Assembly (NCBI GenBank): GCA_016703265.1
Contig: JADJCK010000004.1
Span: 205,520 to 269,519 of the forward strand
Reading direction: 5' to 3'
DNA: 64,000 bases
Source: a bacterium
GTDB lineage: Bacteria; Krumholzibacteriota; Krumholzibacteriia; LZORAL124-64-63
The position numbers were made by a program, and so were the translations under genes. The notes under the pieces are model-generated. The model ran no database searches and had not been told where the DNA came from. It saw only the letters and a program-made list of their open reading frames with translations. Positions 16,728 to 34,912 of this stretch are shown here, piece after piece (the first letter of the stretch is position 1; each line of letters starts with the position of its first letter).

Positions 16728-17555
16728 TCAAGTGGACAGTTCGAAGTTAGAGTTTTCGGCTTCCCATCTCTCCCTGAAGACCGACGGCGGTACCTTGCCA
16801 AGGCTGTCGTGCGGTCGCTCCTCGTTGTAGTCGAGCATCCAGTTCCAAGCCAGCTCCCGCACCTGGTCAAGGTCGTCGAACAGGTATGCGCTGAGCAGTT
16901 CGTCACGGAACGTCTTGTTGAACCTTTCGATGTATGCGTTCTGGTTCGGCTTTCCGGGCTGGATGTACAGGATCTCAACGCCGTTCTGCTCGCACCAGTT
17001 CACAAACGGCTGACTCAGCAGCTCTGGCCCGTTGTCGCACCGGATGGCATCCGGCACGCCGCGCCAGCTCTTGATTACGTCCAGGGTCCGCACGACTCTT
17101 TCGCCGGGCAGCGACGTGTCGATCTCGATCCCCAAGCACTCGCGCACGCCTTCGTCCAGCACATTCATCGTTCGGAAGCAGCGCCCGCAGTACAACGTGT
17201 CGTGCATGAAGTCGAGTGCCCAGATTCGGTTCGGTTCTGCTGGAACAACTAAGGGCTGACGCGGCCGGTCGCCCAGCCGCTTCTTCGTCCGCCGTCGGTG
17301 ATTCATGCCCAGCTCGCAGTACACGCGGTAGATCCGCTTGTGATTCCAGGGCCGACCATCCAGCCGCAGGCGGTCTCGGTACTTCCAGAAGCCGCGACGC
17401 GGGTGCCTCTCTGCCAGGTCCTGCAACGCATCAATGACCTCGGCGTCGCGCACCAATCGATCCTGCGGCGCCTTGTACCAGGCCGAACGCGACAGCCCGA
17501 TCGCGGCGCAGGCACGGCTCACGGAAAATTTCTGCTCGGCCACCGGATACCTCAC
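16728..17555 (-). CDS. IS3-family transposase OrfB (DDE/rve integrase core)
   Basis: 275-aa ORF with the DDE motif context (ALDFMHD...CDNGPE...NAYIERFNKTFRDE). Normally expressed as an OrfAB fusion by -1 frameshifting. Confidence 0.85.
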   Translation of the reverse strand: MRYPVAEQKFSVSRACAAIGLSRSAWYKAPQDRLVRDAEVIDALQDLAERHPRRGFWKYRDRLRLDGRPWNHKRIYRVYCELGMNHRRRTKKRLGDRPRQPLVVPAEPNRIWALDFMHDTLYCGRCFRTMNVLDEGVRECLGIEIDTSLPGERVVRTLDVIKSWRGVPDAIRCDNGPELLSQPFVNWCEQNGVEILYIQPGKPNQNAYIERFNKTFRDELLSAYLFDDLDQVRELAWNWMLDYNEERPHDSLGKVPPSVFRERWEAENSNFELST

Positions 17556-18288: not shown

Positions 18289-21162
18289 GTGAACTCCGAA
18301 GACCAGCATTCAAGTGATGATATTCGTGCGGAGTCGACTGCTACCCCGGCCCGTTCCACCAACTATTTTGCGCAGGCCACGCGAGATCTTGGCGTCTCGC
18401 GCAAGGCAACGTTCGATCACGAGCTTCCGGCATCACTATTGTCTGTTCTACATGACTTCACGATCGAGGAGTCCCTTGGGCGGGGCGGTGTCGGCACGGT
18501 ATATGCCGCCTTTCAGGTATCGATGCAACGGCGCGTGGCGATCAAAGTTTTGCATCACAACAGCTTGTCCCACCACTCCCTGCCCGCGCGATTCACACGC
18601 GAGGCCTGGATCGGAGGTCGGCTACATCACCCTTCCATAGTGAAAGTGTTTTCACAGGAAGACTGCGGCGAGTTCCAATGCATCGTCATGGAGATGATCG
18701 ATGGGGGCAACCTTGCCCAATGCGTGGCGACAGCGCGAAACCGCTTTGCGCCTGATGATTTGCCGCCCGCGACGGAGTATCGCGACTACCTGCAGGAGAT
18801 CTTGGTCTACTTCATACAGATCGCCGACGCACTCGACCATATCCACCGACGGGGGATCGTGCACCGGGATATCAAGCCCCACAACATTCTGGTGGATCGT
18901 GCGGCTAGACAGGCGTATCTGACTGACTTTGGAATCGCAATCGAATACGGATCCGATCAACTGACGCGCACCGGCGACTTCCTGGGAACCGTGCAATACA
19001 TGTCGCCAGAGCATCTTGATTCTGGCGGGCGCGCGCTGGATCATCGGGCAGACATCTGGTCGTTCGGCGTGACCCTATATGAGGCCGCCACCTTCACGAC
19101 GCCGTTCGCGGGCGGTGCAACATCGACCATGCGCAGCATCCTGGCCGATAGAAGCCTACCGTCCGCGCGGGCACGCCAGCGACACGTGCCGAGGGACCTC
19201 GAGACAATCCTTACTCGTTGTTTGCAGCCGGAACCTGGCCGACGATATGCGACTGCTGCCGACGTGCGCGACGATCTCCAGCGACTTGTCGATGGCCAAC
19301 CGATCTGTGCGCGGCGACCGAGTCGTTTGGAGCGCGTTGGCCGATATCTAGCTCGCAACCGCAGGCGTTTCATGATGGGCGGAGCCGCGTTCTTGATCGC
19401 AACCGCGGTCGTTGTCAGCGCAATTGATGCTGTTGGCGTTCGGATTCGTGATCATAAGACGAATAGGATCCTGCAACAGGTCATCACGCGGAACTTGCCA
19501 GCCCGCGCCCTCAGCACCAATTGGGACCACCTGGAGGAGCACCTGATGGAGCGCGTGCGCGCGCGCCCACGTGATCCGCTTTCGATACTGGCAAGGCGTG
19601 CTGCAAATGGCGTTGCAGTGCGCGTTGCCGAGTTCGGGCCAGTCCACCACGCGAACGCTGTAATCAGCGGACAGGCCCGCCTTAACCCAGGTATTCAATT
19701 CGACAACATCATTGACCTAGAGGCCTCGTGGGACCGTGGTCCATGGGACCCCGTGGCCGTACTCTATACAAACATGTGGGAATCGACGCGGCTCAACTTG
19801 CCCCTGGCCTCATGGGTGGATCCCAGCCGGATCAAGGAAGGGCCTCACATAATGCGGTTTCGCGCGCACGTACGCTATCTAGACGTGGCCGGGATCGCTA
19901 CCGCTGCGAGAGAGCGCCGGGACTATCGATCATTCGACCCCGAGCATCCGGCTACCGCCTGGCCCGTCGGCGACAGTTTTGATGAGTGGTTAGCCGCCGC
20001 GCGCGAAACGCCGTGTCTATTTGAGGAAGACACCGACCTGGGCGAATTTCCGATAGTGCTCTTAGGTTCGATTCCCGATTCCATACCATCGCCTCTTGAG
20101 ATTACGGAAACTGATGAAGCTCGGGCAACGTGGTTCGCGATCGATGAGCTTGTTGTTACCGGAGTTGCCGTGCCGGCCGGGCCGCCCGCGATGTCGATCG
20201 ACTACGTGTCGGGAAACGGTATCCCTCGGACCGCGGCCTGCCCTCCCGATATCGATGCCGAACCTGGGGGCGAATCGCAGGTGCTGATATGCACAATCGA
20301 GCTGAATGGGCGATTCGAGATCCGGTCCGATCGGGCGCTGGCGTTCGAGGACATCTTGCTGCGTTCGCGTGACGGGGACCTACGTGTGGGCGTTGGATCC
20401 GAACGCTTTGCGGTTGGCTGTGTAGTGGAAGGAGAACTGGCCGGCGCCCAGCATGAAAACGCAGGAGGCTTTCGTTATCTTGATTCGATTGGCGACGGGA
20501 TTCAGAGTGGTTTGCCCGACCAGTCGACACGTGAAGCAACCTTGGGTGACGTCTATACGCGACTGGTGCTGAGGGGACGAACAGCGGTTTCTGCGGCCGC
20601 CTGGGATCGCGCCCGAAACGGCGCCAAGCCAACCTTCGCTGTTCTTCCGAGTCGAGCAGTCGCATCACACCATGTGGATGGGGTATATGGTCCGGCTGGG
20701 GCTATGATGAGCTATGTGGCTGACCAGATCGAATGTGTACCGCGAAAACAGCGGTTCGAGCTTCTTCGTGGCAAGTGGAACGACGATATCGTGGCGTTGA
20801 CGGGTGAGGCCAAATGGTCGCCAGCGGCGTCTTCCGCCGCAGAGTCGTTAACCGTTAGGTACCGAATACTCGACGCCGACTGGGATCGCGCGGACGAGAG
20901 ACTGGAGCTCCACTGGGCTGTCGACAATTGGCGTCGGCCCCAGATCGAACTCGGCCACGGTTGGCGGTGGTCTCCACCCGATTCTGTTGCCGTGATCAGC
21001 CCCATGACCAAGGCGGAGCGCGGTTGGTGGCAAGTCACTGTTCCTCGGCCTCTAGACGCAACCGAACTGGACTTCGTCGTGCGTCTGTTTGATCGTCGCC
21101 GGAACCGAGTTGTACAATGGGACAACAACAACGGCAAGGACTGGCGGGTCGACCTCGACTAG
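18289..21162 (+). CDS. receptor-type Hanks Ser/Thr protein kinase with large C-terminal extracytoplasmic domain
   Basis: Kinase motifs GRGGVGTVY, AIK, HRDIKPHNILV, DFG, SPE. TM helix MMGGAAFLIATAVVVSAI. About 580 aa of unassigned C-terminal domain. Confidence 0.8.
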   Translation: MNSEDQHSSDDIRAESTATPARSTNYFAQATRDLGVSRKATFDHELPASLLSVLHDFTIEESLGRGGVGTVYAAFQVSMQRRVAIKVLHHNSLSHHSLPARFTREAWIGGRLHHPSIVKVFSQEDCGEFQCIVMEMIDGGNLAQCVATARNRFAPDDLPPATEYRDYLQEILVYFIQIADALDHIHRRGIVHRDIKPHNILVDRAARQAYLTDFGIAIEYGSDQLTRTGDFLGTVQYMSPEHLDSGGRALDHRADIWSFGVTLYEAATFTTPFAGGATSTMRSILADRSLPSARARQRHVPRDLETILTRCLQPEPGRRYATAADVRDDLQRLVDGQPICARRPSRLERVGRYLARNRRRFMMGGAAFLIATAVVVSAIDAVGVRIRDHKTNRILQQVITRNLPARALSTNWDHLEEHLMERVRARPRDPLSILARRAANGVAVRVAEFGPVHHANAVISGQARLNPGIQFDNIIDLEASWDRGPWDPVAVLYTNMWESTRLNLPLASWVDPSRIKEGPHIMRFRAHVRYLDVAGIATAARERRDYRSFDPEHPATAWPVGDSFDEWLAAARETPCLFEEDTDLGEFPIVLLGSIPDSIPSPLEITETDEARATWFAIDELVVTGVAVPAGPPAMSIDYVSGNGIPRTAACPPDIDAEPGGESQVLICTIELNGRFEIRSDRALAFEDILLRSRDGDLRVGVGSERFAVGCVVEGELAGAQHENAGGFRYLDSIGDGIQSGLPDQSTREATLGDVYTRLVLRGRTAVSAAAWDRARNGAKPTFAVLPSRAVASHHVDGVYGPAGAMMSYVADQIECVPRKQRFELLRGKWNDDIVALTGEAKWSPAASSAAESLTVRYRILDADWDRADERLELHWAVDNWRRPQIELGHGWRWSPPDSVAVISPMTKAERGWWQVTVPRPLDATELDFVVRLFDRRRNRVVQWDNNNGKDWRVDLD

Positions 21163-21248: not shown

Positions 21249-21446
21249 CTATCGGACCAGCAAATGGTCCAGGTACTCCCACATGAGTGTCGCGACATCC
21301 GACGGTGCCTGACGAGTCAACCCGGCCTTGAACTCTTCGTGTTCTTTCCGGTACATGCGCAGGTGCGATTGGTTTTCGGCGGTGGCAGCCTCTACGTTCG
21401 CAATCCGGTCGGCCAGCTTGAGGATCACGGCCAATTCGTCTTCCCT
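21249..21446 (-). pseudogene. HD-domain protein, C-terminal part (continues 24050..24378 once the IS and one TSD copy are removed)
   Basis: Joining the flanks gives the in-frame reading ...YAKTREDELAVILKLADRIANVEAATAENQ... (KLADRLxN motif of RelA/SpoT HD domains). Confidence 0.7.
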
Positions 21447-21562
21447 TGCGTATTCCAGTGATTTCGGCCACCCGTTCGATCGATTCCGGCCGCGCAGTCC
21501 AGTCCATTCCGGCCACCTGTTCCGACGTATTCGGCCACCGCCGGGCGTAGCGACGGGGATCT

Positions 21563-22220
21563 CATTCGCCCGCCTCCGCAGTCGCGGTCAACGTTTCTCC
21601 TTTCTTTTGCGGGGACTCGCCCGTCAACTCGATCTTGTGCGCGTTGTGGATCCCGGTCCAGGATCGCGTCAGCCAGCGTTGGGTCATCCAGGTACTGGTG
21701 CGGTGCTGACCGGCAGTTGGCTCGTGATCAGGGTCGACCGCGTCTGGTAACGGTCATCGGGCTCGAGCAGGTCCCGCCGGTTCTCTGGCGTCAGTGGCGC
21801 CAGTCCCCAGTCATCGAGCACCAGCAGGTCGGCGCGTGCGAGCTTGGCCAACCGCTTCCGGTAGCTGCCGTCGGCCTTGGCGATCTCCAGATCGTGGCAC
21901 AGCCGCGGCAGGCGCTGGTACGTGACCCGCTGCCCGTGACGGCATGCCTGCTGCGCCAGCGCGCAGCCGAGGTACGTCTTGCCGACGCCGGTCGGTCCGG
22001 TGATCACCACGTTCAGATTCTCCCTGATCCATTGGCACGACGCCAGGGCTCAACACCAGCGTCTTGCTCAGCCCGCGACGACTGCGGTAGTCGATGTCCT
22101 CCGTGCACGCCGGCAGGCGGCGCGCCTGCGTCAGGCGGGTCTTCAGTCGGCGGTTCTCGCGGGCGGCCTCTTCCCGATCGACCAGCAGCCCCAGCCGATC
22201 CTCCGAAGCTCAGGCTGGAT
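21563..22220 (-). pseudogene. istB: istB (IS21 helper ATPase), frameshifted
   Basis: Fragments MVITGPTGVGKTYLG (Walker A), LLVLDDWG, and DPTLADAILDR...IHNAHKIELTGES in a shifted frame (extra G near 21690). Confidence 0.65.
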
Positions 22221-23796
22221 GCGTCCGGGGTCTGCAGCTGGTCGACCAAGGCGTCGGCCATCCCGCCCAGTGCAGGTCGCGCAGCTTCTCCACCGTCGGA
22301 TGGATCAACATGGGCGACCTCCGCGGCGGGAACGGCAGCACGGGCGCGAGTAGTCGGCGCCCGGATGTTCTCGTGCTCGATCGACGGTGTCGGCGGCACT
22401 GGCGACGGCAGCGGCTGCTGGTCCAGGCCGCTCTTGAGGATCGACCCCGCTCTTGCAGCTGCACGCGCCGGTCGCCAGTGCGCGCTCGCAGGCCGCTTCC
22501 AGACGAGCATTTCCGTACTGCTCGCGTCGTATCACGCCCAGGCACGAACGGTAGCCTTGCTGGGGATGGGGCCGGCTCGCGATGATCCGCGTCGCCACCG
22601 CCGCCACCGCGCCACCAGCCTCGCCAGCCCAGCGCACCACTCGCTCCGGCGTCCACTCGGCGTGCTGCCGATGGTGCTCTGGCTGTTCGGGCAGCGTAGC
22701 GGCCCTGCAAGTGGCTGCGCGTGGCTCGCCACCGACGGCCGCGATGCAGCACCTCTACCGTCGACGCCGTCACCCGCGCCTCGCAGCGAAGGCCCACCAG
22801 TTGATGCGGCACCGAGTAGTAGTGCTTGTCCACCGCACGTGGTAGTCGATGCACCTTCACGCGCGGCCATTCGGCGTACTCGTACGGCGAACACGGCAAT
22901 GGCCTGAGCGCCGGCCGATCCAGTTCTTCCCACAGACTGCGCCGACTCGGCCGGTTTCTGGAACCGCTTGTTGTCCAGCGCTTCCAGCAGTTCCGTGATC
23001 GCACGGTTCAGCTCGGCCAACGAGAAGAACGTCCGGTGCCTCAGCTGGCAGGATCCAGCGCTGGCCACTGACCCCGGCCTCGACCTTCGCCTTGTCCTTC
23101 GGGCGGCATACCCGCGCCGGCAGCCGCCACCTCGTAGTGACTGGCCATCTCGGTACGTCGGGTTCAGGTCGGCTCGTGAGGGTGCGGGCTCGTCACCCGG
23201 CTTGAGATTGTCCGGCACCAGCACCTGCGGCACGCCGCCCAGGTAATGCAACGCCCGCACATGGGACGCAATCCAGTCCGGCAGCTTCTGCGTCCACGTC
23301 GCTTCCGCAGTACGTGTAGTTGCTCGCACCAAGCACGGCGACGAACAGGGCCTGCCGGATCTCGCCGGTCAACCGGTCCACCACCGGCACCTGGGCCCGC
23401 GTAGTCGACGAACAGTTTCTCGCCCGCGCGGTGCGTCTGCCGCATACCAGGGTCCTGACGACGGCCACTGGCCGTACAACTCGCAGAACCGGCTGTACTG
23501 GTGACCTTCCGGATGCGCCTCCTTGTGTTTCCTGCCGGCAGGGAACAGCGTCACGCCCTTGTGCCGCTTCAGCTCCAGATGCAACTGTGCCCGTTCGGCT
23601 GCGGCCGCTGATCGGCCGGCAGCGACGACGGCGGCGGGAACAGCAGCGACTCCAGCGCCGCGTCATCCAGATCCTCGGCCAACGGCCATGTCAGACCCGC
23701 CGCCTCCGCCAGCCGCAGATATTCCGCCACCGTGCTACGCGCGATGCCGCAGCTGTGGGCGATGGCCCGGCTGCTCAGGCCGCAGCCTCTTTTCAA
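22210..23796 (-). pseudogene. istA: istA (IS21 transposase), multiply frameshifted
   Basis: Fragments in three frames: HTH (SRAIAHSCGIARSTVAEYLR), the DDE region (GEKLFVDYAG) and HVRALHYLGGVPQVLVPDNLK. Confidence 0.65.
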
Positions 23797-24049
23797 ACGC
23801 AGGACTTCTTTGATCTTTCGCTGGACAACCGCTCTCTGGGCACCTCGGCTCCCTCTACTCGGCGTGTCGCGGTTAGAAGCGCGGTACCCGCTGGGGTGTC
23901 CTGCGTCGCGGTCGGCGTCTACCCTGCCAGGGGGGCCGAATTGCGTCGGAATCGGTGGCCGGTTTCGGTCGGAATGGGTGGCCGAATTGAATCGGAATGG
24001 GTGGCCGATTTGCGTCGGAATCAGTGGCCGATTTCAGTTGGAATACGCA

Positions 24050-24378
24050 TCCCTCGTCTTGGCATAGGTGGCCCGCTTCCTCGCCGCCCGGTTCGCTCCC
24101 GGTTCATCCGTGACGCGCCACACCAGATCTGCGACAGCTTCGCCGAACCGGGAGGCCAGTTCGCTGCGCGTGATCACAGTGTCTTCGAGGCTGTCATGAA
24201 GCCAGGCGGCCACGACAACGGGCGCCGACCATGGTTGCCCAGGAATCACGCCGAACCGCTCCAGGGTATCAACCACGGCCTGCAGATGATCCGTATATGG
24301 ACGCTCACCGTATTGTTGCCCGCTGTGCAGTTCGAAAGCCAACAGTTTGGCTGCGACGAGTCCCTGATCTCCGACCAT
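24050..24378 (-). pseudogene. HD-domain (p)ppGpp-hydrolase-like protein, N-terminal part, interrupted by IS21
   Basis: MVGDQGLVAAKLLAFELHSGQQYGERPYTDHLQAVV...AAWLHDSLEDT (SpoT-type HD motif). The reading frame runs into the IS terminus. Confidence 0.7.
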
Positions 24379-24422
24379 GTGACGCCGTTCCCTATCGCCG
24401 AGGCCCCGGCCTCGCGGGCTGT

Positions 24423-27400
24423 CTAGGAAGCCCCCAGGCTGATCGTCGTCCTGGCGGACCGATCATCCGTTTCGGTGCCATCCCAGATGTGGTGGCCCTC
24501 CCATTCCGCTCCCGCACGCTTGCGGCTCTGGATGGTAACCTGGTTCCGCGGCACATCGATAGTCAGAAGCTGATACGATTGAGGGATGCCTGGCGGCAGA
24601 GCCCGGCTGCGGGCACTGAAACTGCCCGTCGCCAGGAAGTAGACCCGCTGCCGGGTCAACAGATCCATGGCCCCGGCACGATCGCGGTGGATGTGGCCGT
24701 GCAGCCCAAGGCGTGTCCCCAGGGCGCGCAGGTGCCCAGCGAACTGCTCCTCGTCGCGAAAGTCCGCGAGGGGATGATGCCAGACTCCGATTGTCAGCAG
24801 GTCGCCGCTGGAATCGTCCAGCAGCCGCCCCTTCGATCCCACCAATACGTCATCGTGCACCCTTACGTCGTCGGCATGGCAGCGGTCAATGTGCCATGAG
24901 GAATTGTATGCGATGAAGCGCAGACCGATCTGGGGATAGGCGTGCAGGCGAACCTGATCTTTATAGGCCAGCGGATAGGGCTCGCCGTAGACCAGCCGAT
25001 GCAATCGGTGCGAGTACGGCCGAAAGCGATTCGGATAGAAGCCCGCGTCTTTCTTGGTCGGTTCGCAGCCGACCTGCTGCGGGCAATGCCCCAGGTCTGC
25101 CAGGGCCTTGAGGTCGTCCGGCGTGACGTGGCAACAGGTAGCCGCCTCCCAGTCGACGTCGTGGTTCCCGGGTACGACAACCCAGCGCTCGCGCGGCACG
25201 CCCATCCGCTCTTCTAGCATGCGCAGGAACGCATAGACGGAGGCGTACTCGTCCATCGCCGCGGTATCCGCAAGGTCTCCGGTGACGACAACCGAATCCA
25301 AACGCTCGATCTTCAGCCGGTGCTTCAGATCGAACACGAGATCGACCACAAGCTTCCGGATGTTTTCACCGCCGCGGAAGTGCAGATCGCTCAGGTGAAG
25401 GACATGTGCCGGTGCGCGACCGGGTGCAGAACGCTGCGGGATTTCGCACGCTGGGGCTGTTTCGTGCCGGTAATCGACGTCGTGCAGGGCCGCCGCCATT
25501 TCCGGAAGCTCCCAGATCTGGATCTCGCGGCTGCCGTTTGTCGGAACCGCCAGCCCGCCACCGGCGGGATTGAACGACAGACAGCCGCCCGGTTCGTGGT
25601 AGTGCGTGGCATCCATCGCGAGCGAGCCGTCCGCGAGCAGCGAGCCGTCGCGCCACCCCCACAACCGGCAGTGACCGCTGCGGTCAAGCGTCAGCAGGCG
25701 GGAACCGTCCGGCGACAGGCAGAGGCGTACCACGGCGCCTTCCGGCTGAGTCCAGCGGCCACGGTACCGCCGCTCCCTGACGTCCCAGATGCCAATGCGC
25801 CCGTCGTCGCCGCCGGAGATGACAAAGCGGCCCTCTGGCGTCCAGACGACGTCATTGACCGCTTCCAGGTGTCCGGCCGTGATATCGACGAGATCGTTGT
25901 CGACCACGGACCAGATCCTGACGGTTCCGTCGGCTGCGGCCGATGCCAGTTCGTGCCCCGAAGCAGACCACGCCAATGCCCGGACCGGCGCATGATGACG
26001 TCCAAGCGGCGACGAGCGGAGCCGGCAAGCGCCGGGTGTCCGCGTCCACAAGGTAACGGACCCATCGGCGGATCCGCTCGCGAAGGCATCTTCATTGGGC
26101 GCCGCAGCCAGCGCTCCGACACGGCCGTGGCCGGTCTCCAATACGGCCCGGCGCGCCCAGTCCGGCCCATCGAACCTGATGACGCGGCCACGATCGACGG
26201 CCACGATCAGCCCCAGACCATCGGCAGTGCCCGTGACTGCCGTGACATGTCCGTCGATCCGGGCGGTGGCCAGGCAGCGGCGCGCCGTCAAGCTCCATTT
26301 CTCGACTTCTCCGTCCGCGTTGATCAGCGCCAGATGTCGGCCGTCTGGAGTCCAGACAGTGTGGCTGAACCTGCCGCTCCGGCAACCGAGACGCATCACG
26401 CCTTCCGGGTCCACGCGCAGAACCCGAGCCAGTTCGTTCATGGCGTCACCGTTCGCGTCGTCACGGTCGCTGCGCGGATCTCGCGCGGTTCCGGTCTCGC
26501 TGGTCCTGATCATCCATGAGGTAAGCGGTGCAGGCTCGTCCATGCTCGCCGTCCGAACCGGGTCTCCTGCTCCGGCCCGGTCGTGACCACACAAGGCCTG
26601 GAGCTGTGCATGGCGCCGGGCAATTGTGTCGAGAGAAGCACTGTTCATCACATCGGCCAGGGTTGGGGCCACCTTCTCGACGGCGCGTCGCGCGAGTGCA
26701 ACCAGGGCCACTTCGTTACGATCAAGAATCTGCAGCAGCACCGGGTCCAGACGATGGTCAGCTGGACCCTGCGCGATGCCATCGGCGAAGCCGGCGCGGC
26801 GCGCCAGCGCGTCAGCGATCTGGACGACCCCTGCCAAGTCCCAGCGATTCCAACCCTGTACATGGTGCTCAAACGGATCGTGGTGCCCCGCGATGGCACT
26901 GACGGTCTCGGCGGCCAGGTGCGACAACTCGAGCACCTGCGCGGCAACGATGGCGTGGTCTGCTGCGCTCCCGTCCGCCTGGCGCAGGTGACGACGTTCT
27001 CCGTCCTGCGTTGTCAGACCCTCGCCCTGGCAGGTGATCGCCACATGGCGGTAGATGTCTCCGCCGTGCCGGATCAGCAACAACTTGCCGAAATCGTGCA
27101 GGAGCCCCGCCAGGCGAGCCTGTTCGGCGAAAGCTCGATTGCGATGTTCGCCCAGATCATGCGCCAGCTCAGCGACGATCAGGCTGTGGGCGAGCAGATG
27201 GTCCGCGAGCGCGCCCGCCCTGCCGGCCAGATGGCACAGGCCCTGACGCAGCGCACAGTAGTTGACGACGTCGCGCCCCAGACGTGTCACGGCCGTCGGC
27301 AGATCGCTGATCGTGCGCCCGGAGGTTCCGTAGAAGGCGCTGTTGGCGCGGCGCATGATCACGGTGGTCAGATCGGGATCGTTGGCCACGGCTCTGGCCA

Positions 27401-27593
27401 GGCGCCGGTTGTCACTGCACTCGGCTTGGCGCAGCTCCTCAAGCACTACCGCCAACGCCCCGGGCAATGACGCCCGGGCCAGGTTGGGAAGGTCGGGCAC
27501 ATCCACGATGTGGAACAGGTCGGGCTCGCCGGCCGCGCTGGCGGGCTCGTGCTCGATCGTGAGTGCTTCGGCGGTAGTGAATACCAGGCCCAT
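24423..27593 (-). CDS. HDOD domain / WD40 beta-propeller / calcineurin-like metallophosphoesterase fusion protein (1056 aa)
   Basis: N-terminal HDOD (NSAFYG...AVTRLG...AGLLHDFGKLLL). At least four WD repeats (GSADGSVTLWT, AAADGTVRIWSV, GGDDGRIGIWDV). C-terminal metallophosphoesterase motifs (LHLSDLHF, VVTGDLAD, VPGNHD, GHIH). Confidence 0.8.
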   Translation of the reverse strand: MGLVFTTAEALTIEHEPASAAGEPDLFHIVDVPDLPNLARASLPGALAVVLEELRQAECSDNRRLARAVANDPDLTTVIMRRANSAFYGTSGRTISDLPTAVTRLGRDVVNYCALRQGLCHLAGRAGALADHLLAHSLIVAELAHDLGEHRNRAFAEQARLAGLLHDFGKLLLIRHGGDIYRHVAITCQGEGLTTQDGERRHLRQADGSAADHAIVAAQVLELSHLAAETVSAIAGHHDPFEHHVQGWNRWDLAGVVQIADALARRAGFADGIAQGPADHRLDPVLLQILDRNEVALVALARRAVEKVAPTLADVMNSASLDTIARRHAQLQALCGHDRAGAGDPVRTASMDEPAPLTSWMIRTSETGTARDPRSDRDDANGDAMNELARVLRVDPEGVMRLGCRSGRFSHTVWTPDGRHLALINADGEVEKWSLTARRCLATARIDGHVTAVTGTADGLGLIVAVDRGRVIRFDGPDWARRAVLETGHGRVGALAAAPNEDAFASGSADGSVTLWTRTPGACRLRSSPLGRHHAPVRALAWSASGHELASAAADGTVRIWSVVDNDLVDITAGHLEAVNDVVWTPEGRFVISGGDDGRIGIWDVRERRYRGRWTQPEGAVVRLCLSPDGSRLLTLDRSGHCRLWGWRDGSLLADGSLAMDATHYHEPGGCLSFNPAGGGLAVPTNGSREIQIWELPEMAAALHDVDYRHETAPACEIPQRSAPGRAPAHVLHLSDLHFRGGENIRKLVVDLVFDLKHRLKIERLDSVVVTGDLADTAAMDEYASVYAFLRMLEERMGVPRERWVVVPGNHDVDWEAATCCHVTPDDLKALADLGHCPQQVGCEPTKKDAGFYPNRFRPYSHRLHRLVYGEPYPLAYKDQVRLHAYPQIGLRFIAYNSSWHIDRCHADDVRVHDDVLVGSKGRLLDDSSGDLLTIGVWHHPLADFRDEEQFAGHLRALGTRLGLHGHIHRDRAGAMDLLTRQRVYFLATGSFSARSRALPPGIPQSYQLLTIDVPRNQVTIQSRKRAGAEWEGHHIWDGTETDDRSARTTISLGAS

Positions 27594-27806
27594 GTCGTGC
27601 CTCCGTGCGGCGGCGCTGCGCTTATCCCGGATGACCTCCCTCGGGTGCCCTTCAATTGCTGATATCGTTCGTCAATCGCCGATACGGCTTGAGATCGCTA
27701 TTGGACCAGGCTTGCACGTTTGTCTTGTTTTTTGCGGCGCCGTGTTGCGATGCTCCGCTTTGGGCGGTCAAACTCCCTGGTCGGGGCGGAACTCGTTCGT
27801 GAGTGC

Positions 27807-28574
27807 TTAACAATCCTCCCGGATAAATCGCTCGAGGAATGCCTCGTAGGCCCCCTTCATCGGCAGCCCCAGATCGACGCATAGACCGCGTCCCGAAGCT
27901 CGGGCCCCCGTACCATCTGCGTCGGAGACCGTTGACGATTGATTGCCTTCCCAGTAGACACCAATGCCGCGGCGCTGCCAGGCCGGCAGGTCATTGAAAT
28001 TGATGCCGGCCCGCTCATACAACAGGTCGTTCTTGGCGGCAGTCGACATCCCCGCGAGCTGAGTCGCAGACTCGGCCGGGGTCCGGCCCTCCCGTCGCAA
28101 CTGCCAATAGCAGTGTCCGTTCAGTGCATTGCGGTGGGCGTCATCGGCGCGCCAGCGGAAGTAGCTCAGGACGCGCGCCCGGTCGGGCAACTGGGCGATC
28201 CGGGCGTCGAACGCCGCGGGTATCCCCAATCGGTGGGTAAACCACGCGCTGGCTTCGCCGGCCAGGATCGATTCGTACTTACGAAGCTTGCGGCCAAAGG
28301 CGTCTTCGTCGCGGTCCAAAAGCAACGAGATCTCATCGCTCTGCGTGTATGCATAGACGACGCGAAATCCGCACGACATCAGGTGCTTGGTCGTCTCGAC
28401 CATGTGGTCGCGAAATGATTCGTCATACGGTGCGGTGAAACAACACACTTCGCGTGTCAGGCGGGTGAAGTTGCGGCCATCGATCCGCACTACAATGTGC
28501 AGGCCTGGCAGGACACAATGGTCGTGCGCGGTTTCGAAGATCCGCATCGCGGTATCAAGATCCGTGAACCTCAT
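27807..28574 (-). CDS. tRNA(His) guanylyltransferase Thg1-like protein (3'-5' polymerase)
   Basis: ATG at 28574. HIVVRIDGRNFTRL and AYTQSDEISLLL match Thg1 catalytic motifs. Confidence 0.8.
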   Translation of the reverse strand: MRFTDLDTAMRIFETAHDHCVLPGLHIVVRIDGRNFTRLTREVCCFTAPYDESFRDHMVETTKHLMSCGFRVVYAYTQSDEISLLLDRDEDAFGRKLRKYESILAGEASAWFTHRLGIPAAFDARIAQLPDRARVLSYFRWRADDAHRNALNGHCYWQLRREGRTPAESATQLAGMSTAAKNDLLYERAGINFNDLPAWQRRGIGVYWEGNQSSTVSDADGTGARASGRGLCVDLGLPMKGAYEAFLERFIREDC

Positions 28575-29013
28575 CGCGCCACTCCTCGACTGCGAAGCCA
28601 CCCCTCGGCACCTGTGAGACATACCATAGTTGCGTGAAACCCTCGGCAAGGCTTGGCAGCCTCAGCCGCCCAGCCGTGCCCCGGACGGCCGCGTCCGGCA
28701 CGCGTTCAGGGCCGGAACGGAGCCGGTTGCGCTCCAGACAATCGGTGACCACGCTTCGGAAATAGTACCCCACAACCTCGTAACCCGCGGCCAGAGCCGG
28801 CACGATAAAGCGCGCGCGTTCCGCGATGCTCGCATTCGTGTTGTCGACGACAAAAGGCCGACGCTCGAGGATACATGCCTCCAACAGCGTCGCTTCGCGA
28901 CGTCTCGTGCGCAGCGAGTCGAGATTCAAGCGCACGTGGGTGTCGGCGAAGCGCTGCTGGCAGAACGTCGACTTTCCGGCAGCGGGAAGGCCGATGAGAA
29001 TAACTGCATGCAT
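28555..29013 (-). CDS. P-loop kinase (polynucleotide-kinase-like) partnered with the Thg1-like gene
   Basis: Walker A GLPAAGKST at the N-terminus. 152 aa. 20-nt overlap with the downstream Thg1-like start. Confidence 0.6.
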   Translation of the reverse strand: MHAVILIGLPAAGKSTFCQQRFADTHVRLNLDSLRTRRREATLLEACILERRPFVVDNTNASIAERARFIVPALAAGYEVVGYYFRSVVTDCLERNRLRSGPERVPDAAVRGTAGRLRLPSLAEGFTQLWYVSQVPRGGFAVEEWRDEVHGS

Positions 29014-29325
29014 GTGTCTTCATCACCCGGTCGGATCCTGAACGGCACGGTGGCCCCTGAATCCTGGTGGCGAGCGACGGCCTCATCAGAGTCCGCTGCG
29101 CGATGTACGTCCCGTCCACATGTTGTCAAACATGCGGATGGAATTCAACTGCGAACAACCGAACGATCGACGGAAACACCGCGGGACTGCGGAATCCGGT
29201 TTCCCGGGAACCGCGCCGTCCTCTACAATGGGGGCCGATCGGAACCTGACGGCGGTTCGACGTCGACTTCGTCCCGGCGCCGCGGGCTTTGCGAGCCGGG
29301 TCGTCCTCAAACGGGAGTACGTGAA

Positions 29326-30336
29326 GTGAGCCTGAGCTGCACCGTCCTGGGCGCCCCCGGCAAGGACAACGCCCTGCTGGTGACCGTCGACACCGGCCAA
29401 TCTGTCCACAGGCTGCTATTCGACTGCGGGGACGGGTGTTTGACCGGTCTGCCGATAGCCGACATTCTCGCGATTGACCACTTGTTCCTGTCGCATCTGC
29501 ACATGGACCACATTGCCGGCTTCGACACGTTTTTCCGATGCACCTTCGATCGCTCCAGTCGGCCCAATCGGGCGTGGGGCCCGCCTGGAACCGCGCGCAT
29601 TCTCCAACACCGGTTCCAGGGCTTCCTGTGGAACCTGCACGAGCAGATGCAGGGCACCTGGCGTGTCACCGACATCGGCCCCGAATGCCTGCACACGGCA
29701 CGCTTCGAACTGGGTGAGGCGTTCGCCGCGCTTCACGACGACTGCATGGAGGAGCGGTCCGCGGTCGTTCTGGACCATCCTCAGTTCACCGTCGAAGCCA
29801 TTGCCATGGAGCACCGCACCACCACTTTGGCTTACATCGTGCGCGAGAAGCCACGCCGCAACATCGACGTCACGCGTCTTGGCGCGCTCGGCTTGCAGCC
29901 TGGCCCATGGCTGAAGCAACTGAAGGAAGCGATCGATCCGGATTCGACCATTGTTGTCGAAGGAGTTGCGCATACCGCCGGCACACTTGCCGAGTCACTT
30001 GTCAGCGAAACTCCAGGCGATTCCGTTGCCTATCTGACGGACTTTCTTCTCGACGACCAGGCGATGGATGCTCTCGTGCCGCGGCTGCGCGAATGCAACA
30101 CCGTCGTCTGTGAGGCGCAGTACAGGCACGCGGATCTGGACCTTGCGCATCGCCATTTCCATATGACCACCGTCTTGTCCGCAACGTTGGCACAACGAGC
30201 AGCCGTCCGGGAGTTGGTACTCTTTCATCTGTCGGAGCGATATTCGCGAAGCGAATGGCTGGATATGTTGAACGAGGCGCGGGCCGTGTTTCCCAGGACG
30301 CGGTTCGCGGATTCCTGGCGCCTGGATGCCGACTAG
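29326..30336 (+). CDS. metallo-beta-lactamase-fold hydrolase, RNase Z/RNase BN-like
   Basis: GTG at 29326 with GGGAG Shine-Dalgarno. HxHxDH motif LFLSHLHMDHIAGF. Divergent from the kinase/Thg1-like pair. Confidence 0.7.
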   Translation: MSLSCTVLGAPGKDNALLVTVDTGQSVHRLLFDCGDGCLTGLPIADILAIDHLFLSHLHMDHIAGFDTFFRCTFDRSSRPNRAWGPPGTARILQHRFQGFLWNLHEQMQGTWRVTDIGPECLHTARFELGEAFAALHDDCMEERSAVVLDHPQFTVEAIAMEHRTTTLAYIVREKPRRNIDVTRLGALGLQPGPWLKQLKEAIDPDSTIVVEGVAHTAGTLAESLVSETPGDSVAYLTDFLLDDQAMDALVPRLRECNTVVCEAQYRHADLDLAHRHFHMTTVLSATLAQRAAVRELVLFHLSERYSRSEWLDMLNEARAVFPRTRFADSWRLDAD

Positions 30337-30390
30337 GGTGGCTACTGTCAGGCAGCGCGCCCGCGTGGCCGGAAGTTCAGCCCCTGGCGG

Positions 30391-30978
30391 CTAATCGGGC
30401 GCTTTCCCGGCAGCTTTGCCACTCGACTCCCTGAGCGCGCGCCACTCGTCCGCCAGCACGTCGAGATACACCATGTCGCACCATTCGCCTCGCATGAACG
30501 CTGCCTGGCGCAGCACACTTCCGCGGCGATAACCCTGCTTCTCGAGAGCGCGAAGCGAGGCGTGGTTGTCGGCCAGCACCTCAGCCCACAAACTATGTAG
30601 TCCGAGCTCGCCGAATGCGTAATCCATCATCAGGTTCTTGGCTGCCGTGCCGAATCCCCGGCTGCGGTACTCCGGCGGGCCGATCACGATGCCCGTCATC
30701 GCACGGCGACGAATCCAGTCAATGGCATGCAGGCCTGCCGTCCCGATCAGGATTTGATTGTCGCCATCCGGAATAGTGATGCCCAGAACCACATCTCGAC
30801 GATCGGCGCCCGCCGTCGAATGCGACTGCAGCCATGCCGTCTCGTCGCCAGCCGTGATGGGGAATCTGACGGAGAGAAAGCGCCTCAGCTCAGGACTGTT
30901 CAGCCAAACAACCAATTGTTCGGCGTCGCTGGGCTCGAGTGTGCGCAGATTCACGGCTTCGCCGCTTAGAAACACCAC
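30391..30978 (-). CDS. GNAT family N-acetyltransferase (RimJ/RimL-like)
   Basis: 195-aa ORF with acetyl-CoA-binding region (HASLRALEKQGYRR). Confidence 0.65.
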   Translation of the reverse strand: MVFLSGEAVNLRTLEPSDAEQLVVWLNSPELRRFLSVRFPITAGDETAWLQSHSTAGADRRDVVLGITIPDGDNQILIGTAGLHAIDWIRRRAMTGIVIGPPEYRSRGFGTAAKNLMMDYAFGELGLHSLWAEVLADNHASLRALEKQGYRRGSVLRQAAFMRGEWCDMVYLDVLADEWRALRESSGKAAGKAPD

Positions 30979-31125
30979 CGCGTGTCCCCCTCCGTGTTCT
31001 CGGCCATGTTGGCCCCGAAGGCGCGCTCAGCTCTTGCGCCGTCGCGCGGTCTCCGGCGGTACGGATTGTACGGCTTGAACTCCGTCGCGGTCAACCTCTC
31101 CGGAACAGACGCGACCGTGCGAACC

Positions 31126-31617
31126 CTATCCCAGCAAGCGTTCGTAGACTTCAAGATCTCGCGCCGAGAAGCAGCAGAACTGCACCTCTTCGATGCCCTG
31201 TGGTGCCGAGCGGACCGTCGCGATGGCCGTTGCAGCCGCCTCTTCTATCGGATAGCCGAAGATGCCCGTGCTGATGCTGGGGAACGCAAGCGTCCTGATC
31301 CCATTCGCGACGGCGACCTCCATCGAGCGGCGGTAGCATGACGCCAACAGATCCGGCTCACCATGGGTACCGCCGCGCCACACCGGTCCGACGGTATGAA
31401 TGATGAAGCTCGCGGGAATCCTGTAGCCACGTGTGATCTTCGCATCTCCCGTTCGGCAGCCGCCCAGCAGCCTGCACTCGTGCACCAGTTCTGGACCTGC
31501 CGCACGGTGAATGGCACCATCGACGCCACCACCACCCAGCAGCGACGAGTTTGCAGCGTTGACGATCGCCTCTACAGGTACCTTCGTGATGTCGGCCTTA
31601 ACGGCCCGGATGATCAT
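31126..31617 (-). CDS. macrodomain protein (MacroD/YmdB-like ADP-ribose-binding hydrolase)
   Basis: [25 protein letters not shown] and [12 protein letters not shown] motifs. ATG at 31617 ([12 protein letters not shown]). Confidence 0.8.
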
Positions 31618-31683
31618 GGCGTCTCCAGTTCGGGCTCTCAAGCGTGCCGCGCGACACAGATCCGCAGTCTCCAGCCAAGCCCA

Positions 31684-32325
31684 TCAATCGACGGCCAACT
31701 GCAATCGGCCGGCGATCGCCGGATCACGGGGGCGGTACACACGTTCGCGTGGGGCCTGAAGCCCGGCCACCCCGGCGACCGCAAGTCGGGCTCGTTGGTC
31801 GGCCACGAATCCCGACACATCCATGACCTCGATCAATTCGTTGCACCCGTATGACTTCAGAACGCGTCCGCGCAGGCCCAACTGGACAGCTCTTCGTGGC
31901 AAGCGGGCGCCGAATGGGTGATGATCTGGGTCCCATCGCAGCCTTACCTCTGACGTCTTCAGCGCGCGGGACCATTCGCCTTCCGTGGCGAACTCGCCAC
32001 AATCCCACAACGAGGGCACCGCCTGGGCCAACAACGAGTCAAAAAACACCTGTCGTATGCGCAATGCCAGGACGGTTTCCTGCCCGACTTTGGTGCCCCA
32101 TCCGGAGCGATACATCATCCACAGGAAATTCGGCTTCACCCAGCTCATTCGTGAATAGCTGAAGCCGGGTCCGAATGTCCCGTGTTCGGCGGCATATTGA
32201 CCAGTCGGCGATCGGAATGCCTGATAGACGATGATTGTGTCGTCGTCGTACTGGGCGAGTATGTGGCGCCCTTCCGCGGGCCACAGCTTCACCTGCTCCA
32301 GATAGGATTCGGTTTCCAGATTCAT
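31684..32325 (-). CDS. DUF4291-like protein
   Basis: ATG at 32325 (MNLETESYLEQVKLWP). Conserved block TIIVYQAF...YSRMSWVKPNFLWMMYRSGWGTKVGQE...LRWDPD. Confidence 0.55.
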   Translation of the reverse strand: MNLETESYLEQVKLWPAEGRHILAQYDDDTIIVYQAFRSPTGQYAAEHGTFGPGFSYSRMSWVKPNFLWMMYRSGWGTKVGQETVLALRIRQVFFDSLLAQAVPSLWDCGEFATEGEWSRALKTSEVRLRWDPDHHPFGARLPRRAVQLGLRGRVLKSYGCNELIEVMDVSGFVADQRARLAVAGVAGLQAPRERVYRPRDPAIAGRLQLAVD

Positions 32326-32359
32326 TCGTCTCACCTTGGGCCCTCGCGCAGACTCTCGA

Positions 32360-32902
32360 CTACGGCAGCTTGTTGGGCGATTCAGCGGGCGCCGGTGGCG
32401 CCTCCAGAGGCATAAGACCCAGATCCGCCTCGACAACTTCCGCATACTCCACGAGCGTTGCGATCACTTCACAATAGGCATCGAGAGCGCCGGTGGCCAT
32501 GCTCTGCGCTCGCCGCAGCAGGTCGTCTTCGGCTGCCGCCAAGCGTGCGTCGGCGTCCCGCAGACTTTTCAGCATGACTCCGGTAACGCCATGTTCTGCC
32601 GTGAGTACCGCGACGATGGTCGCCAACTTGCCGAACTGATCGACGATTGCTGAGGCGTGGAGATTCACGCGCTCCGATGTGACATCCGTCCACGTGGCGC
32701 CCCTGGCCGACACCAGATCGGTCATGGCTTCCACGCGTTCGCTGATTTCCCGGCTCGGCGCCAATATGCGCTTGAGGCTCTGTGCGTCCGCTGCCAGGGC
32801 GGCCATGGCCGCGGAGGTGTCACTCCGCAGTGCCGATTGCAGCTGGCAGGACTCGAGCGCGGTCCCGAACAGGACACATGTTGTCAGCCGGGCTGACATG
32901 GC
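32360..32902 (-). CDS. hypothetical helical protein
   Basis: ORF 32360..33070; start uncertain (MSARL at 32902 avoids overlap with the upstream gene). Confidence 0.4.
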   Translation of the reverse strand, partial: AMSARLTTCVLFGTALESCQLQSALRSDTSAAMAALAADAQSLKRILAPSREISERVEAMTDLVSARGATWTDVTSERVNLHASAIVDQFGKLATIVAVLTAEHGVTGVMLKSLRDADARLAAAEDDLLRRAQSMATGALDAYCEVIATLVEYAEVVEADLGLMPLEAPPAPAESPNKLP

Positions 32903-32943
32903 GTCGACAGGCGCTGCTTCACCGCGGCGGATCGCCTCCTGGA

Positions 32944-34440
32944 TCAGATCGCGCGCGGCGACCAGGTCGGCTCGTGCCGCCTGCTCGGAGACTGGATCCC
33001 GTTCCGCAGGTACCTGAATTTCAAGGCCGACCAGGGAACAACCCGTCGGCATGTACCTCGCCAGGCACACCGGCGTGCGGCCGAACGCTCCTTGCGGTTC
33101 AGGTACTCGCTCAAGGGCTCGATCGTTTCCGGGCTGGGCGCGGCGCCCAGCCCGGACGCGTAGAACACCTGACTGGCCGCGACATGCACCGCATTCGGCC
33201 TGCTCAGCAAGGTACTGGCGGCGGCATTGCCGGCGATGACGCCCTCACCGCCAAGTTGTTCCGCTGCGGCGATGCGATCGGCTTCACACTGATGTGTCGC
33301 GCGAGGCTCCGTCCGTGTCGCCAGAACTTCGCTCCAGCGCTCGGCGAAGGTCGCCTGGTCAAGACGCGACGCCTCGACGGCAATCAACTCGCCAACGGAG
33401 TCTGGAAGGACTCCGCGGCGCAGGAAGTGCGACAATTCAGCCTCGACAACGGATCTTCCCGAAGCCAATTCGTGCAGCCGCCGCGCGGTTGCCGCGAACT
33501 CGTTGCTGCCGGCCACCAGGGTCTCGTAGCGATCCGCATCGAACTCCATCTGGCGCAACTGGAACGAACTGATGAGCACGCCGACTTCCATAAGCAGGCG
33601 CAGGATCGCACGCGAGATCCACACCATGCCACGAGCAGCCCAGCAAACCACAACCAACGTCACATGTTGCGAGCCGACCCCGTTGTCGAGCCACTCGTCC
33701 AGGCGATCCCGCTGGTACACGACCCGCGAGAACCACCAGTTGACAGAGCGAATCACGTACGAGACACGCATCGCGCCGCCTTGTGCGAAATGGCCCAACT
33801 CATGCGCCATGACGCCGGTGAGTTGCCGCAGGGACATGCCGGCCAGGAGCGGCGTTCCGATCGTCAGCACAAGGTCGTTACCAATGAAGCTGAACATGCC
33901 GCGGCGGAATGCGGCCGAGGCATTGACGTCGCAGTTCACTCGTATCTCGCGCGGTCTCGGCGCTTGTAGCGTGTCGGCGAGACGGTTCACGTGGGCATGC
34001 AGTTCCGGTTCTGCAATGGGGTCGAGCACCACATGATCGGCCCGGTAAGCGGCACGGCTGAAGAGCGGCTTGATCAGAAAGAGCCAGGTAATGCTCCCGA
34101 CGATGAGCGGGCCAAGGTAAAATGTGAGTTGGAGACGGCCCATGCCGTGGTCGAAGATCGCCAATCCACGAACGGCGTGCGTGGCGATCAGCCACGCCAG
34201 TGCAGCCAGCAGGCCCACGTACAGCATGGGCAGTAGAATCATGCCCGCCGCCACGATTGTCGTGCCCAGGTTGTAGCGCGCCGGGCGGCGAGGCCGATTG
34301 ATGGCGTTGGTCGTCCAGACCGTCGCTACCGCGATGGGTTCCTCTGCAACGGGGCTTTGCACAGTGAATTCCTTGGTTGAAGAACCAGACGCACGCGCGA
34401 GTGGCAGGACACACCGCCCGCGTACGATCTCGAAGATCAT
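32944..34440 (-). CDS. M48/M56-type membrane zinc metalloprotease
   Basis: TM helices, then HELGH with a downstream EFDADRYE third-ligand motif. ORF extends to 34581; ATG at 34440 (MLTKTD) is preferred. Confidence 0.65.
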   Translation of the reverse strand: MIFEIVRGRCVLPLARASGSSTKEFTVQSPVAEEPIAVATVWTTNAINRPRRPARYNLGTTIVAAGMILLPMLYVGLLAALAWLIATHAVRGLAIFDHGMGRLQLTFYLGPLIVGSITWLFLIKPLFSRAAYRADHVVLDPIAEPELHAHVNRLADTLQAPRPREIRVNCDVNASAAFRRGMFSFIGNDLVLTIGTPLLAGMSLRQLTGVMAHELGHFAQGGAMRVSYVIRSVNWWFSRVVYQRDRLDEWLDNGVGSQHVTLVVVCWAARGMVWISRAILRLLMEVGVLISSFQLRQMEFDADRYETLVAGSNEFAATARRLHELASGRSVVEAELSHFLRRGVLPDSVGELIAVEASRLDQATFAERWSEVLATRTEPRATHQCEADRIAAAEQLGGEGVIAGNAAASTLLSRPNAVHVAASQVFYASGLGAAPSPETIEPLSEYLNRKERSAARRCAWRGTCRRVVPWSALKFRYLRNGIQSPSRRHEPTWSPRAI

Positions 34441-34603
34441 CATGTCGGTCTTCGTCAGCATCTGTGACAAAAAGCGCGAACCGCAGCCAGGACCGGCAAC
34501 GTTGACCTCCCTTTCCGCACAACAACGGACCCGCAGTCGCGATAACGACGCTATCGCCGAAGGAGACCGCGCAGAATTCATGAGGCTGTGCGCGGTTTGT
34601 CCT

Positions 34604-34638
34604 TGACAACGGTCGGAGAGACTTGTAACATCCCCGCC
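34604..34638 (+). promoter_or_regulatory. candidate sigma70 promoter TTGACA-N17-TAACAT
   Basis: TTGACA at 34604-34609, 17-nt spacer, then TAACAT. Oriented toward the leader ORF and the tRNA-Arg genes. Confidence 0.4.
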
Positions 34639-34673
34639 GTTACAAAAACGCGCAACGCTTCAGGGAAGGAGGA

Positions 34674-34763: not shown

Positions 34764-34801
34764 TCTCATCCGGCCACGCCAACAGCATTCCGCCCGCGAA
34801 G

Positions 34802-34830: not shown

Positions 34831-34831
34831 C

Positions 34832-34908: not shown

Positions 34909-34912
34909 GATC

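Follow-up and report, generated by a model that had tools for sequence, protein, structure and literature searches.

What is the role of a bacterial protein that joins an HDOD domain, a WD40 beta-propeller and a calcineurin-like metallophosphoesterase (MPE) domain in one polypeptide? Such a protein of 1056 amino acids (aa) is encoded in a stretch of 64,000 nucleotides from a bacterium of the Krumholzibacteriota (assembly GCA_016703265.1, contig JADJCK010000004.1, positions 205,520 to 269,519), and we refer to this whole stretch as the window. Next to it lies a gene for a SpoT-type HD hydrolase (family HD_4), and the initial annotation proposed that the two belong to an undescribed nucleotide second-messenger turnover complex. 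Our analysis points to a different role. With moderate confidence, we favour the reading that the protein is a stand-alone sensor-effector of the conflict type, which would act in anti-invader immunity or programmed growth arrest as a single polypeptide without an NTPase switch.

The open reading frame (ORF) is intact, with no stop within its 1056 codons in the ORF listing of the window. The deposited protein for the same coordinates (MBK6734080.1) is annotated only as 'HDOD domain-containing protein'. We judged Pfam scores against the curated gathering thresholds and found all domain scores to be far beyond chance. The HDOD model (PF08668) matches residues 48–240 over profile positions 8–196 of 196 (E 5e-26, 91.8 bits, cut-off 22.9), and the HD model (PF01966) matches residues 134–265 (E 3e-9, 37.7 bits, cut-off 22). 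WD40 (PF00400) reaches 87.5 bits (cut-off 27), and WD40 and many other propeller families cover about residues 409–701. Metallophos (PF00149) matches residues 730–970 (41.2 bits, cut-off 21.5). The protein thus truly belongs to the HDOD, WD40 and metallophosphoesterase superfamilies, and both the ORF and the three domain assignments of the initial annotation are borne out. No NTPase family was found in Pfam, NCBIfam and PADLOC scans of the whole protein and of its N- and C-terminal parts. In Pfam at E<=1, the N-terminal 410 aa match HDOD and HD only, with no EAD/GAAD adaptor, and the C-terminal 357 aa match Metallophos families only, bar one insignificant match (E 0.14). The full-length AlphaFold model, based on a 29-row alignment, starts with a short N-terminal hairpin and has a mean predicted local distance difference test score (pLDDT) of 78; its predicted template modelling score (pTM) is low (0.50), so that the mutual placement of HDOD, WD40 and MPE is not interpretable.

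An exhaustive phmmer search of the 1056-aa protein against 1.84 billion representative proteins returned three further proteins with the order HDOD-WD40-MPE, ranked just below the query: P0174 (1108 aa, MBU8869515.1, from a Gemmatimonadales metagenome-assembled genome, MAG), P0176 (1132 aa) and P0180 (1119 aa, on a 2.1-Mb contig). In the alignment, they are 29–34% identical to the query over the whole length, and among the 150 best matches only these three carry an HDOD. The fusion described by the initial annotation for one genome therefore recurs in others with an identical domain order. The objection that it might be an artefact of frameshifted separate genes falls away, because three independent assemblies, all with intact ORFs, encode the same domain order. 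The family is genuine but very rare, with four clusters among the 1.84 billion representatives. Further searches covered other data. In an alignment scan with the HDOD only, none of at least 65 generic HDOD metagenome loci contained a WD40 or MPE match. A genome scan recovered only WD40-GTPase-MPE and MPE proteins, and found neither an HDOD-type homologue nor the source genome. A word-indexed search with the whole protein was swamped by WD40 proteins and showed the architecture in the query alone; separate word-indexed searches with HDOD and MPE missed the parent protein itself, and long fusions may be under-sampled there. The combination of HDOD, WD40 and MPE was not found in the searched literature, within which the protein is undescribed.

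We next consider the MPE domain, which ends in a C-terminal beta cap. Its five motifs are complete (D736xH738, G772D773, G809N810H811D812, H939H940 and G966H967xH969, the last reading GHIH), and all are invariant in the alignments of the four-member family and of 48 relatives. The motif set listed by the initial annotation (DxH, GDxxD, GNHD and GHxH) is present and conserved, and catalytic competence is predicted for the domain. A model of this domain by itself, built with 48 homologues, reaches a pLDDT of 85 and a pTM of 0.86; in the full-length model, residues 729–1052 form an alpha/beta domain with the beta cap. Foldseek returned 83 matches in the Protein Data Bank (PDB) at E<=1e-3 for the MPE model, every one of the MPE fold. 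The best fold match overall is a predicted model, that of Bacillus subtilis YydB (TM 0.67, E 6e-19), followed among solved structures by the class-III cyclic nucleotide monophosphate (cNMP) phosphodiesterase Rv0805 (E 2e-12, 19% identity), GpdQ and Lmo2642; further matches are the acid-sphingomyelinase/SMPDL3A group and, more weakly, Mre11/SbcD. By sequence, no PDB chain is detectable for the domain at E<0.01. The domain shares the fold and the two-metal active-site motifs with Rv0805, CpdA, GpdQ, Lmo2642 and YydB, but identity to these is only 14–19%, and it adds a loop with a cysteine triad as well as the beta cap. By its modelled fold, the domain is more likely to be a phosphodiesterase for nucleotides or small phosphodiesters, with nucleic acid as a further possible substrate. 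The cysteines of the triad (C820, C837 and C843; positions 25065–25136) lie in a low-confidence insert and are invariant in the four family members, whereas other relatives of the MPE lack them; a small loop specific to the family and stabilised by a metal or by disulfides may be built from them.

The closest relatives of the MPE domain are found in proteins of 330–600 aa, where it is fused to EAD8, GAAD, TIR, HEAT, NUDIX or pentapeptide modules (28–37% identity over more than 83% of the domain, up to 197 bits). The best of these are EAD8-MPE proteins (E 2e-52, 36% identity, 93% coverage). One EAD8-MPE gene (P0118) immediately precedes an EAD8-nSTAND1-FGE-sulfatase gene, and an MPE-GAAD gene (P0163) adjoins a DO-GTPase2 gene. 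Such arrangements have been described before, and the calcineurin-type phosphoesterase was named as a common effector in them (Kaur et al., eLife 2020 and 2021). Kaur et al. and the authors of the work on the defence system DS-8 predict nucleotide substrates for this effector clade. Judged by its sequence relatives, the MPE domain is affiliated with the effectors of NTPase-based conflict systems of the Aravind type. The exhaustive search and the genome scan furthermore recovered giant proteins of the types WD40-small-GTPase-MPE and MPE-P-loop-propeller, in which the MPE aligned over its full length. These proteins (L001, L002, P0278, P0222, P0217 and P0234) have in common with the 1056-aa protein a WD40 propeller and an MPE of the same clade in one polypeptide; they differ in that a GTPase or an AAA+/STAND-like switch lies between propeller and MPE and in that they have no HDOD. 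Two of them (L001, 9764–13456, and L002, 6257–9802) are about 1200 aa long; besides WD40 and the MPE, they contain a small GTPase of the Roc-like kind and a long middle region that includes a Cys-rich motif. Their hosts are Chitinivibrionales and Terracidiphilus MAGs, and the next gene in L001 is a 1009-aa ORF.

When comparing the protein to known defence systems, we find matches of its MPE domain to several models. The domain matches the NCBIfam models DS9_1 (NF053862; 2e-15, 56.6 bits, cut-off 420) and DS8 (NF053861; residues 733–1024 to profile positions 1–279 of 994, 4e-14, 51.2 bits, cut-off 790), and in PADLOC the models 'Effector/Endonuclease' PDLC00736 (2e-12) and PDC-S60 (6e-11). DS-8, a single gene encoding MPE and NACHT, protects Escherichia coli from phage and requires the catalytic residues of the MPE (preprint 10.1101/2025.01.08.631726). 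Like the 1056-aa protein, DS-8 and PDC-S60 are single polypeptides with a homologous MPE. However, DS-8 contains a NACHT and carries its MPE at the N-terminus, whereas the 1056-aa protein has no P-loop NTPase, carries the MPE at the C-terminus and adds WD40 and HDOD. DS-9 consists of an MPE gene and a HAD phosphatase gene, whereas here the neighbours are Thg1-like and HD_4 genes and no HAD gene is present. The match to the effector of cyclic oligonucleotide-based antiphage signalling systems (PDLC00736) is at the domain level only, and no cyclase or SAVED match was found in the scanned neighbours. The nearest sequence relatives are the phosphoesterase effectors of the EAD/GAAD systems (Kaur, Burroughs, Iyer and Aravind). 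In these systems, too, an MPE effector goes together with repeats that form superstructures (WD40, HEAT, pentapeptide), and the distribution is patchy and associated with mobile elements. Their effectors are recruited via EAD8 or GAAD to a separate STAND, MoxR-vWA or DO-GTPase protein, whereas the 1056-aa protein has neither adaptor nor NTPase and carries an HDOD at its N-terminus. In contrast to P0118 and P0163, no STAND, MoxR-vWA or DO-GTPase core gene was found in the neighbourhood in the window or at the homologue loci L076, L078 and L081. On this comparison, the protein would work most like DS-8, PDC-S60 and the EAD/GAAD-linked effectors, yet it lies outside the membership of each as these systems are defined.

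The propeller consists of 28 beta-strands in seven groups of four in the AlphaFold model (residues 399–694, pLDDT mostly 80–95). The initial annotation had recognised at least four WD repeats; the propeller itself is confirmed, and it has seven blades. In STAND proteins associated with defence, such propellers are well-known sensors. In P0174, P0176 and P0180, an extra insert of about 60 aa lies between HDOD and propeller (about 11000–11350 in L076 and about 11050–11480 in L078). It looks like a winged helix-turn-helix (wHTH), with a weak match to MarR_2 in P0174 (8.5e-5). The window protein, which lost this insert or never had it, is predicted to be disordered in the equivalent region.

The HDOD region is all-helical over residues 35–341, with a core pLDDT of about 85–95; it was modelled only as part of the full-length protein, where the alignment is shallow over this region. 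Searched with phmmer against the PDB, it matches 3M1T (5e-8), 3HC1 (3e-6) and also 3LJX/3P3Q. Its putative di-metal ligands are H136, H166, D167, H213, H237 and H238, none of which varies within the four-member family. Across an alignment that includes 25 ordinary HDOD proteins, H136 is nearly invariant and the other five are invariant. In 3HC1, five His and one Asp bind two iron ions (PMC12075610), and the residue set of the window protein corresponds to these, which makes it a putative metal site. Another pair, H145-D146, was considered as the canonical HD dyad and rejected: it is incidental and not conserved, and the true H...HD is H136...H166-D167. The initial annotation had furthermore placed an HHDP motif in a linker. 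Instead, these residues (H237-H238-D239-P240) lie within the HDOD/HD domain, as its conserved HH motif.

Within the family, the HDODs are 35–43% identical to each other and only about 25–30% identical to generic HDODs. Known HDODs (3HC1, 3M1T, MmoQ 3LJX, SadB, GsmR and DVU0330) share with the 1056-aa protein a clear HDOD (92 bits); they are stand-alone proteins of about 280 aa or fused to REC, EAL, GGDEF or YbaK, whereas no fusion to both a propeller and an MPE is reported among them. Little has been published on HDOD catalysis: GsmR, in which the His is missing, has no activity, DVU0330 has intact residues and shows weak activity on bis(p-nitrophenyl) phosphate (bis-pNPP) and none on cyclic di-GMP (c-di-GMP), and SadB is a proteolysis adaptor whose pocket is dispensable for this (PMC12075610). 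For this reason, we treat the HDOD here as a metal- or ligand-binding regulatory module, which might also be a weak hydrolase.

How might the three domains act together? As a sensor-effector, the protein would use its propeller as a recognition and assembly surface for a trigger, which could be a protein or another macromolecule of invader or stress origin. The MPE would provide the catalytic output, as a two-metal phosphodiesterase acting either on a nucleotide (cyclic or linear signalling nucleotides, or NAD- or ATP-derived ones) or on a nucleic-acid phosphodiester. The HDOD would serve as a cap with a regulatory or ligand-sensing function and might be a second, weak phosphohydrolase; it would take the place where relatives have STAND/GTPase modules or EAD adaptors, joined in the homologues by the wHTH. 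In this picture, what triggers the protein, what it cleaves, which way regulation runs and that it serves in defence are all inferred. We favour this reading because only the gene itself is conserved, because the MPE clade is one of conflict effectors and because WD40 is a known sensor. The domain-level matches to the DS-8, DS-9 and PADLOC models, the giant proteins that pair a propeller with the same MPE clade and the invariance of all five MPE motifs support it as well. Furthermore, we count in its favour the patchy distribution over four clusters, the absence of conserved neighbours and the closeness of mobile elements (IS21 and IS3 in the window, a group II intron maturase and Transposase_mut at the homologue loci).

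Several observations weigh against this interpretation. The DS-8 and DS-9 matches are at the domain level only, with scores far below the cut-offs, and the protein has none of the adaptors and NTPases that define the described systems. HDOD is not reported from conflict systems, and the term is absent from both eLife papers on them. No recognised defence system adjoins the ORF in the window, where PADLOC gave only generic kinase and ABC matches among 16 neighbouring ORFs, and there is thus no defence-island signal. The structural neighbours of the MPE include ordinary cNMP phosphodiesterases and glycerophosphodiesterases. Lastly, the arguments from context and distribution are weak with a family of four members. 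A more specific version of the sensor-effector reading, in which the di-iron pocket of the HDOD binds or hydrolyses a nucleotide or redox signal and so gates a WD40-scaffolded phosphodiesterase in place of an ATP/GTP switch, seems to us clearly unlikely.

The structural neighbours just mentioned lead to an alternative, which retains the proposal of the initial annotation in a weaker form: a cytoplasmic signal-transduction phosphodiesterase of normal physiology, in which the MPE and perhaps the HDOD hydrolyse cAMP/cGMP, cyclic dinucleotides or an alarmone and WD40 scaffolds partners. The best matches among solved structures after the YydB model are Rv0805 (2e-12), GpdQ and Lmo2642, and the Joint Genome Institute labels MPE relatives 'CpdA'. 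The HDOD speaks for it as well: typical HDOD partners are EAL, GGDEF and receiver domains, the metal ligands are intact, and an HDOD with intact HD residues gave weak phosphodiesterase activity on bis-pNPP. However, hydrolysis of c-di-GMP has been shown for no HDOD (PMC12075610), and by sequence the MPE groups with effectors fused to EAD8, GAAD, TIR, GTPase or STAND and not with CpdA or Rv0805. No family member has a conserved signalling partner beside it, be it a cyclase, a receiver, PAS/GAF or another, the pairing with a SpoT-type HD gene is unique to the source genome, and such extreme rarity would be unusual for a housekeeping regulator. We therefore consider this alternative unlikely. The same relatives, effectors of NTPase-based conflict and immune systems, argue against the housekeeping framing of a second-messenger turnover complex. 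As a biochemical guess, nucleotide phosphodiesterase activity of the MPE is nevertheless reasonable, given the fold shared with Rv0805, GpdQ and Lmo2642 and the substrates predicted for the clade. Of the proposed pairing of two phosphohydrolase folds with a propeller, the fusion is real and both ends carry phosphohydrolase-type metal sites, but the complex with HD_4 is not supported.

The genomic surroundings bear on this last point (Table 1).

Table 1. Coordinates of the 1056-aa ORF, its domains and the neighbouring features, counted from the first nucleotide of the window.
Feature	Position	Strand	Remarks
Triple-FHA ABC-2 transporter fusion	12063-14804	-	
IS3-family transposase	16728-17555	-	
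Ser/Thr kinase	18289-21162	+	957 aa, long unannotated C-terminal region; strong PADLOC PD-T4-6 matches
SpoT-type HD_4 gene, 3' fragment	21249..21446	-	Sequence reassembly
IS21-family insertion	21447..24049	.	2603 bp, splits HD_4 gene
SpoT-type HD_4 gene, 5' fragment	24050..24378	-	Same strand as 1056-aa ORF, 44 nt downstream of it
HDOD-WD40-metallophosphoesterase ORF	24423..27593	-	1056 aa + stop, ATG start; ORF listing
Calcineurin-like MPE domain with C-terminal beta cap	24426..25409	-	aa 729-1056; Pfam, alignment, model
Seven-bladed WD40 beta-propeller	25494..26399	-	aa 399-700; Pfam and AlphaFold model
Linker, low-confidence, probably disordered	26400..26588	-	aa 336-398; alignment and AlphaFold model
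HDOD / HD-superfamily domain, all-alpha	26589..27491	-	aa 35-335; Pfam and AlphaFold model
Shine-Dalgarno-like GGAGG	27600..27604	-	6 nt upstream of ATG, read directly from sequence
Thg1-like 3'-5' polymerase	27807-28649	-	Upstream of 1056-aa ORF
Polynucleotide kinase (PNK)-like P-loop kinase	28555-29013	-	Overlaps Thg1-like gene
RNase Z-like gene	about 29330-30336	+	NF002558 5.9e-95
GNAT	30391-30978	-	
Macro	31126-31641	-	
DUF4291	31684-32445	-	
M48-like peptidase	32944-34581	-	
RtcB	34963-36201	+	
PrfH-like gene, RF-1 domain	38140-38787	-	Follows second RtcB
Second RtcB	38784-39941	-	

The HD_4 gene is interrupted by an insertion sequence (IS), as the initial annotation had stated. This IS21-family element has 11-bp perfect terminal inverted repeats (TGCGTATTCCA), a 5-bp target-site duplication (TCCCT) and multiple sub-terminal repeats near its right end, and its istA/istB frames are broken by several frameshifts. 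Removing the element together with one copy of the target-site duplication restores a 173-aa HD_4 ORF that covers profile positions 5–141 of 156. The combination of broken istA/istB and a perfectly restored host gene suggests either consensus errors at a multi-copy repeat in the MAG or a recently inserted defective copy. The restored protein resembles SpoT HD proteins of the small alarmone hydrolase (SAH) type. Among the SAHs, there are enzymes that reverse (p)ppApp made by toxins or the 3'-pyrophosphorylation of tRNA. The HD_4 protein could thus belong functionally with the RNA-repair cluster described below and not with the 1056-aa gene. On the other side of the HD_4 gene, the PD-T4-6 matches of the kinase probably arise because any Hanks-type kinase gives them.

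The pairing of the 1056-aa ORF with the HD gene is confined to the source genome: no HD_4, Thg1, kinase or RNA-repair gene was found beside any of the three homologues (L076/L077, L078 and L081). The neighbours there include an FGE-sulfatase gene, a group II intron maturase fragment, an AAA_14 ATPase and an SNase-like ORF (L076/L077), a GMP synthase and a transposase among others (L078) and a sortilin-like ORF (L081). No neighbour is shared among the homologue loci or with the window, and the flanks have no meaningful tblastx similarity. The FGE-sulfatase-domain gene is a stand-alone gene at 6236–7405 of L076, 2.6 kb upstream of P0174, and is absent from the other loci. Its presence may exceed coincidence, as such domains are sensors in STAND conflict systems.

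Upstream of the ORF, the genes from 27807 to 39941 form an RNA-repair-type cluster. The neighbourhood of PNK, Thg1, Macro and RNA ligase is conserved and has been published (2010 survey of Thg1 neighbourhoods); that RNase Z, DUF4291 and an RtcB-PrfH pair are combined with it in one stretch is potentially notable. This cluster raises the possibility that the 1056-aa protein takes part in RNA end-healing. Its gene would share a transcript with those for the PNK-like kinase and the Thg1-like polymerase, its MPE or HDOD would remove 2',3'-cyclic or 3'-phosphates, and its propeller would hold damaged RNA or the ribosome. The calcineurin-type phosphatase domain of bacterial Pnkp is a precedent for such phosphate removal. 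The gene order fits as well: a gap of 213 nt separates the ORF from the PNK-like/Thg1-like pair upstream of it, one of 44 nt separates it from the SAH-like HD gene downstream, all on one strand, and the RNase Z-like, Macro, two RtcB and PrfH-like genes lie within the next 12 kb. No terminator-like hairpin was found between the genes; the hairpin that can be drawn between the ORF and HD_4 does not stand out from shuffled sequence (z 0.5), and scans of 24000–29400 found no promoter or terminator consensus. However, the support is confined to the gene order of this one genome, as none of the three homologue loci has an RNA-repair neighbour. The 2010 survey lists no MPE, HDOD or WD40 partner of Thg1, and the bacterial Pnkp model (TIGR04075) has no match in the 1056-aa protein. 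Furthermore, the 213-nt gap, at the end of which the ORF has its own Shine-Dalgarno-like GGAGG, is compatible with a separate transcription unit. A role in RNA end-healing is thus improbable. A chance or decaying fusion near mobile elements without coherent function, to which these elements and the missing wHTH-like insert of the window member might point, is extremely improbable and largely excluded by conservation, since four proteins at 29–34% identity keep the domain order, none of the catalytic and metal residues varies, the ORFs are intact in independent assemblies, and the domain models are confident (pLDDT of 85 for the MPE and about 85–95 for the propeller and HDOD core).

MPE effectors joined to repeat sensors are an emerging and poorly understood arm of bacterial immunity, of which DS-8 was validated only in 2025. 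In the family described here, the effector and a propeller that resembles a sensor are retained, whereas the NTPase is gone and an HDOD has been added whose metal site is intact. An HDOD in such company will be unexpected to specialists, and its function could become testable. Should the protein turn out to be an ordinary phosphodiesterase, the finding would still correct the idea of a complex between a SpoT-type HD protein and an MPE. If the protein is active, it would offer a compact system of about 1050 aa for studying effector gating without nucleotide hydrolysis and the ligands of HDOD pockets, and it would place HDOD in a context other than the known ones of c-di-GMP and chemotaxis signalling. 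If, moreover, the HDOD acts as the switch, the family would represent a new NTPase-independent class of bacterial sensor-effectors and the first mechanistic role of an HDOD outside c-di-GMP and two-component signalling.

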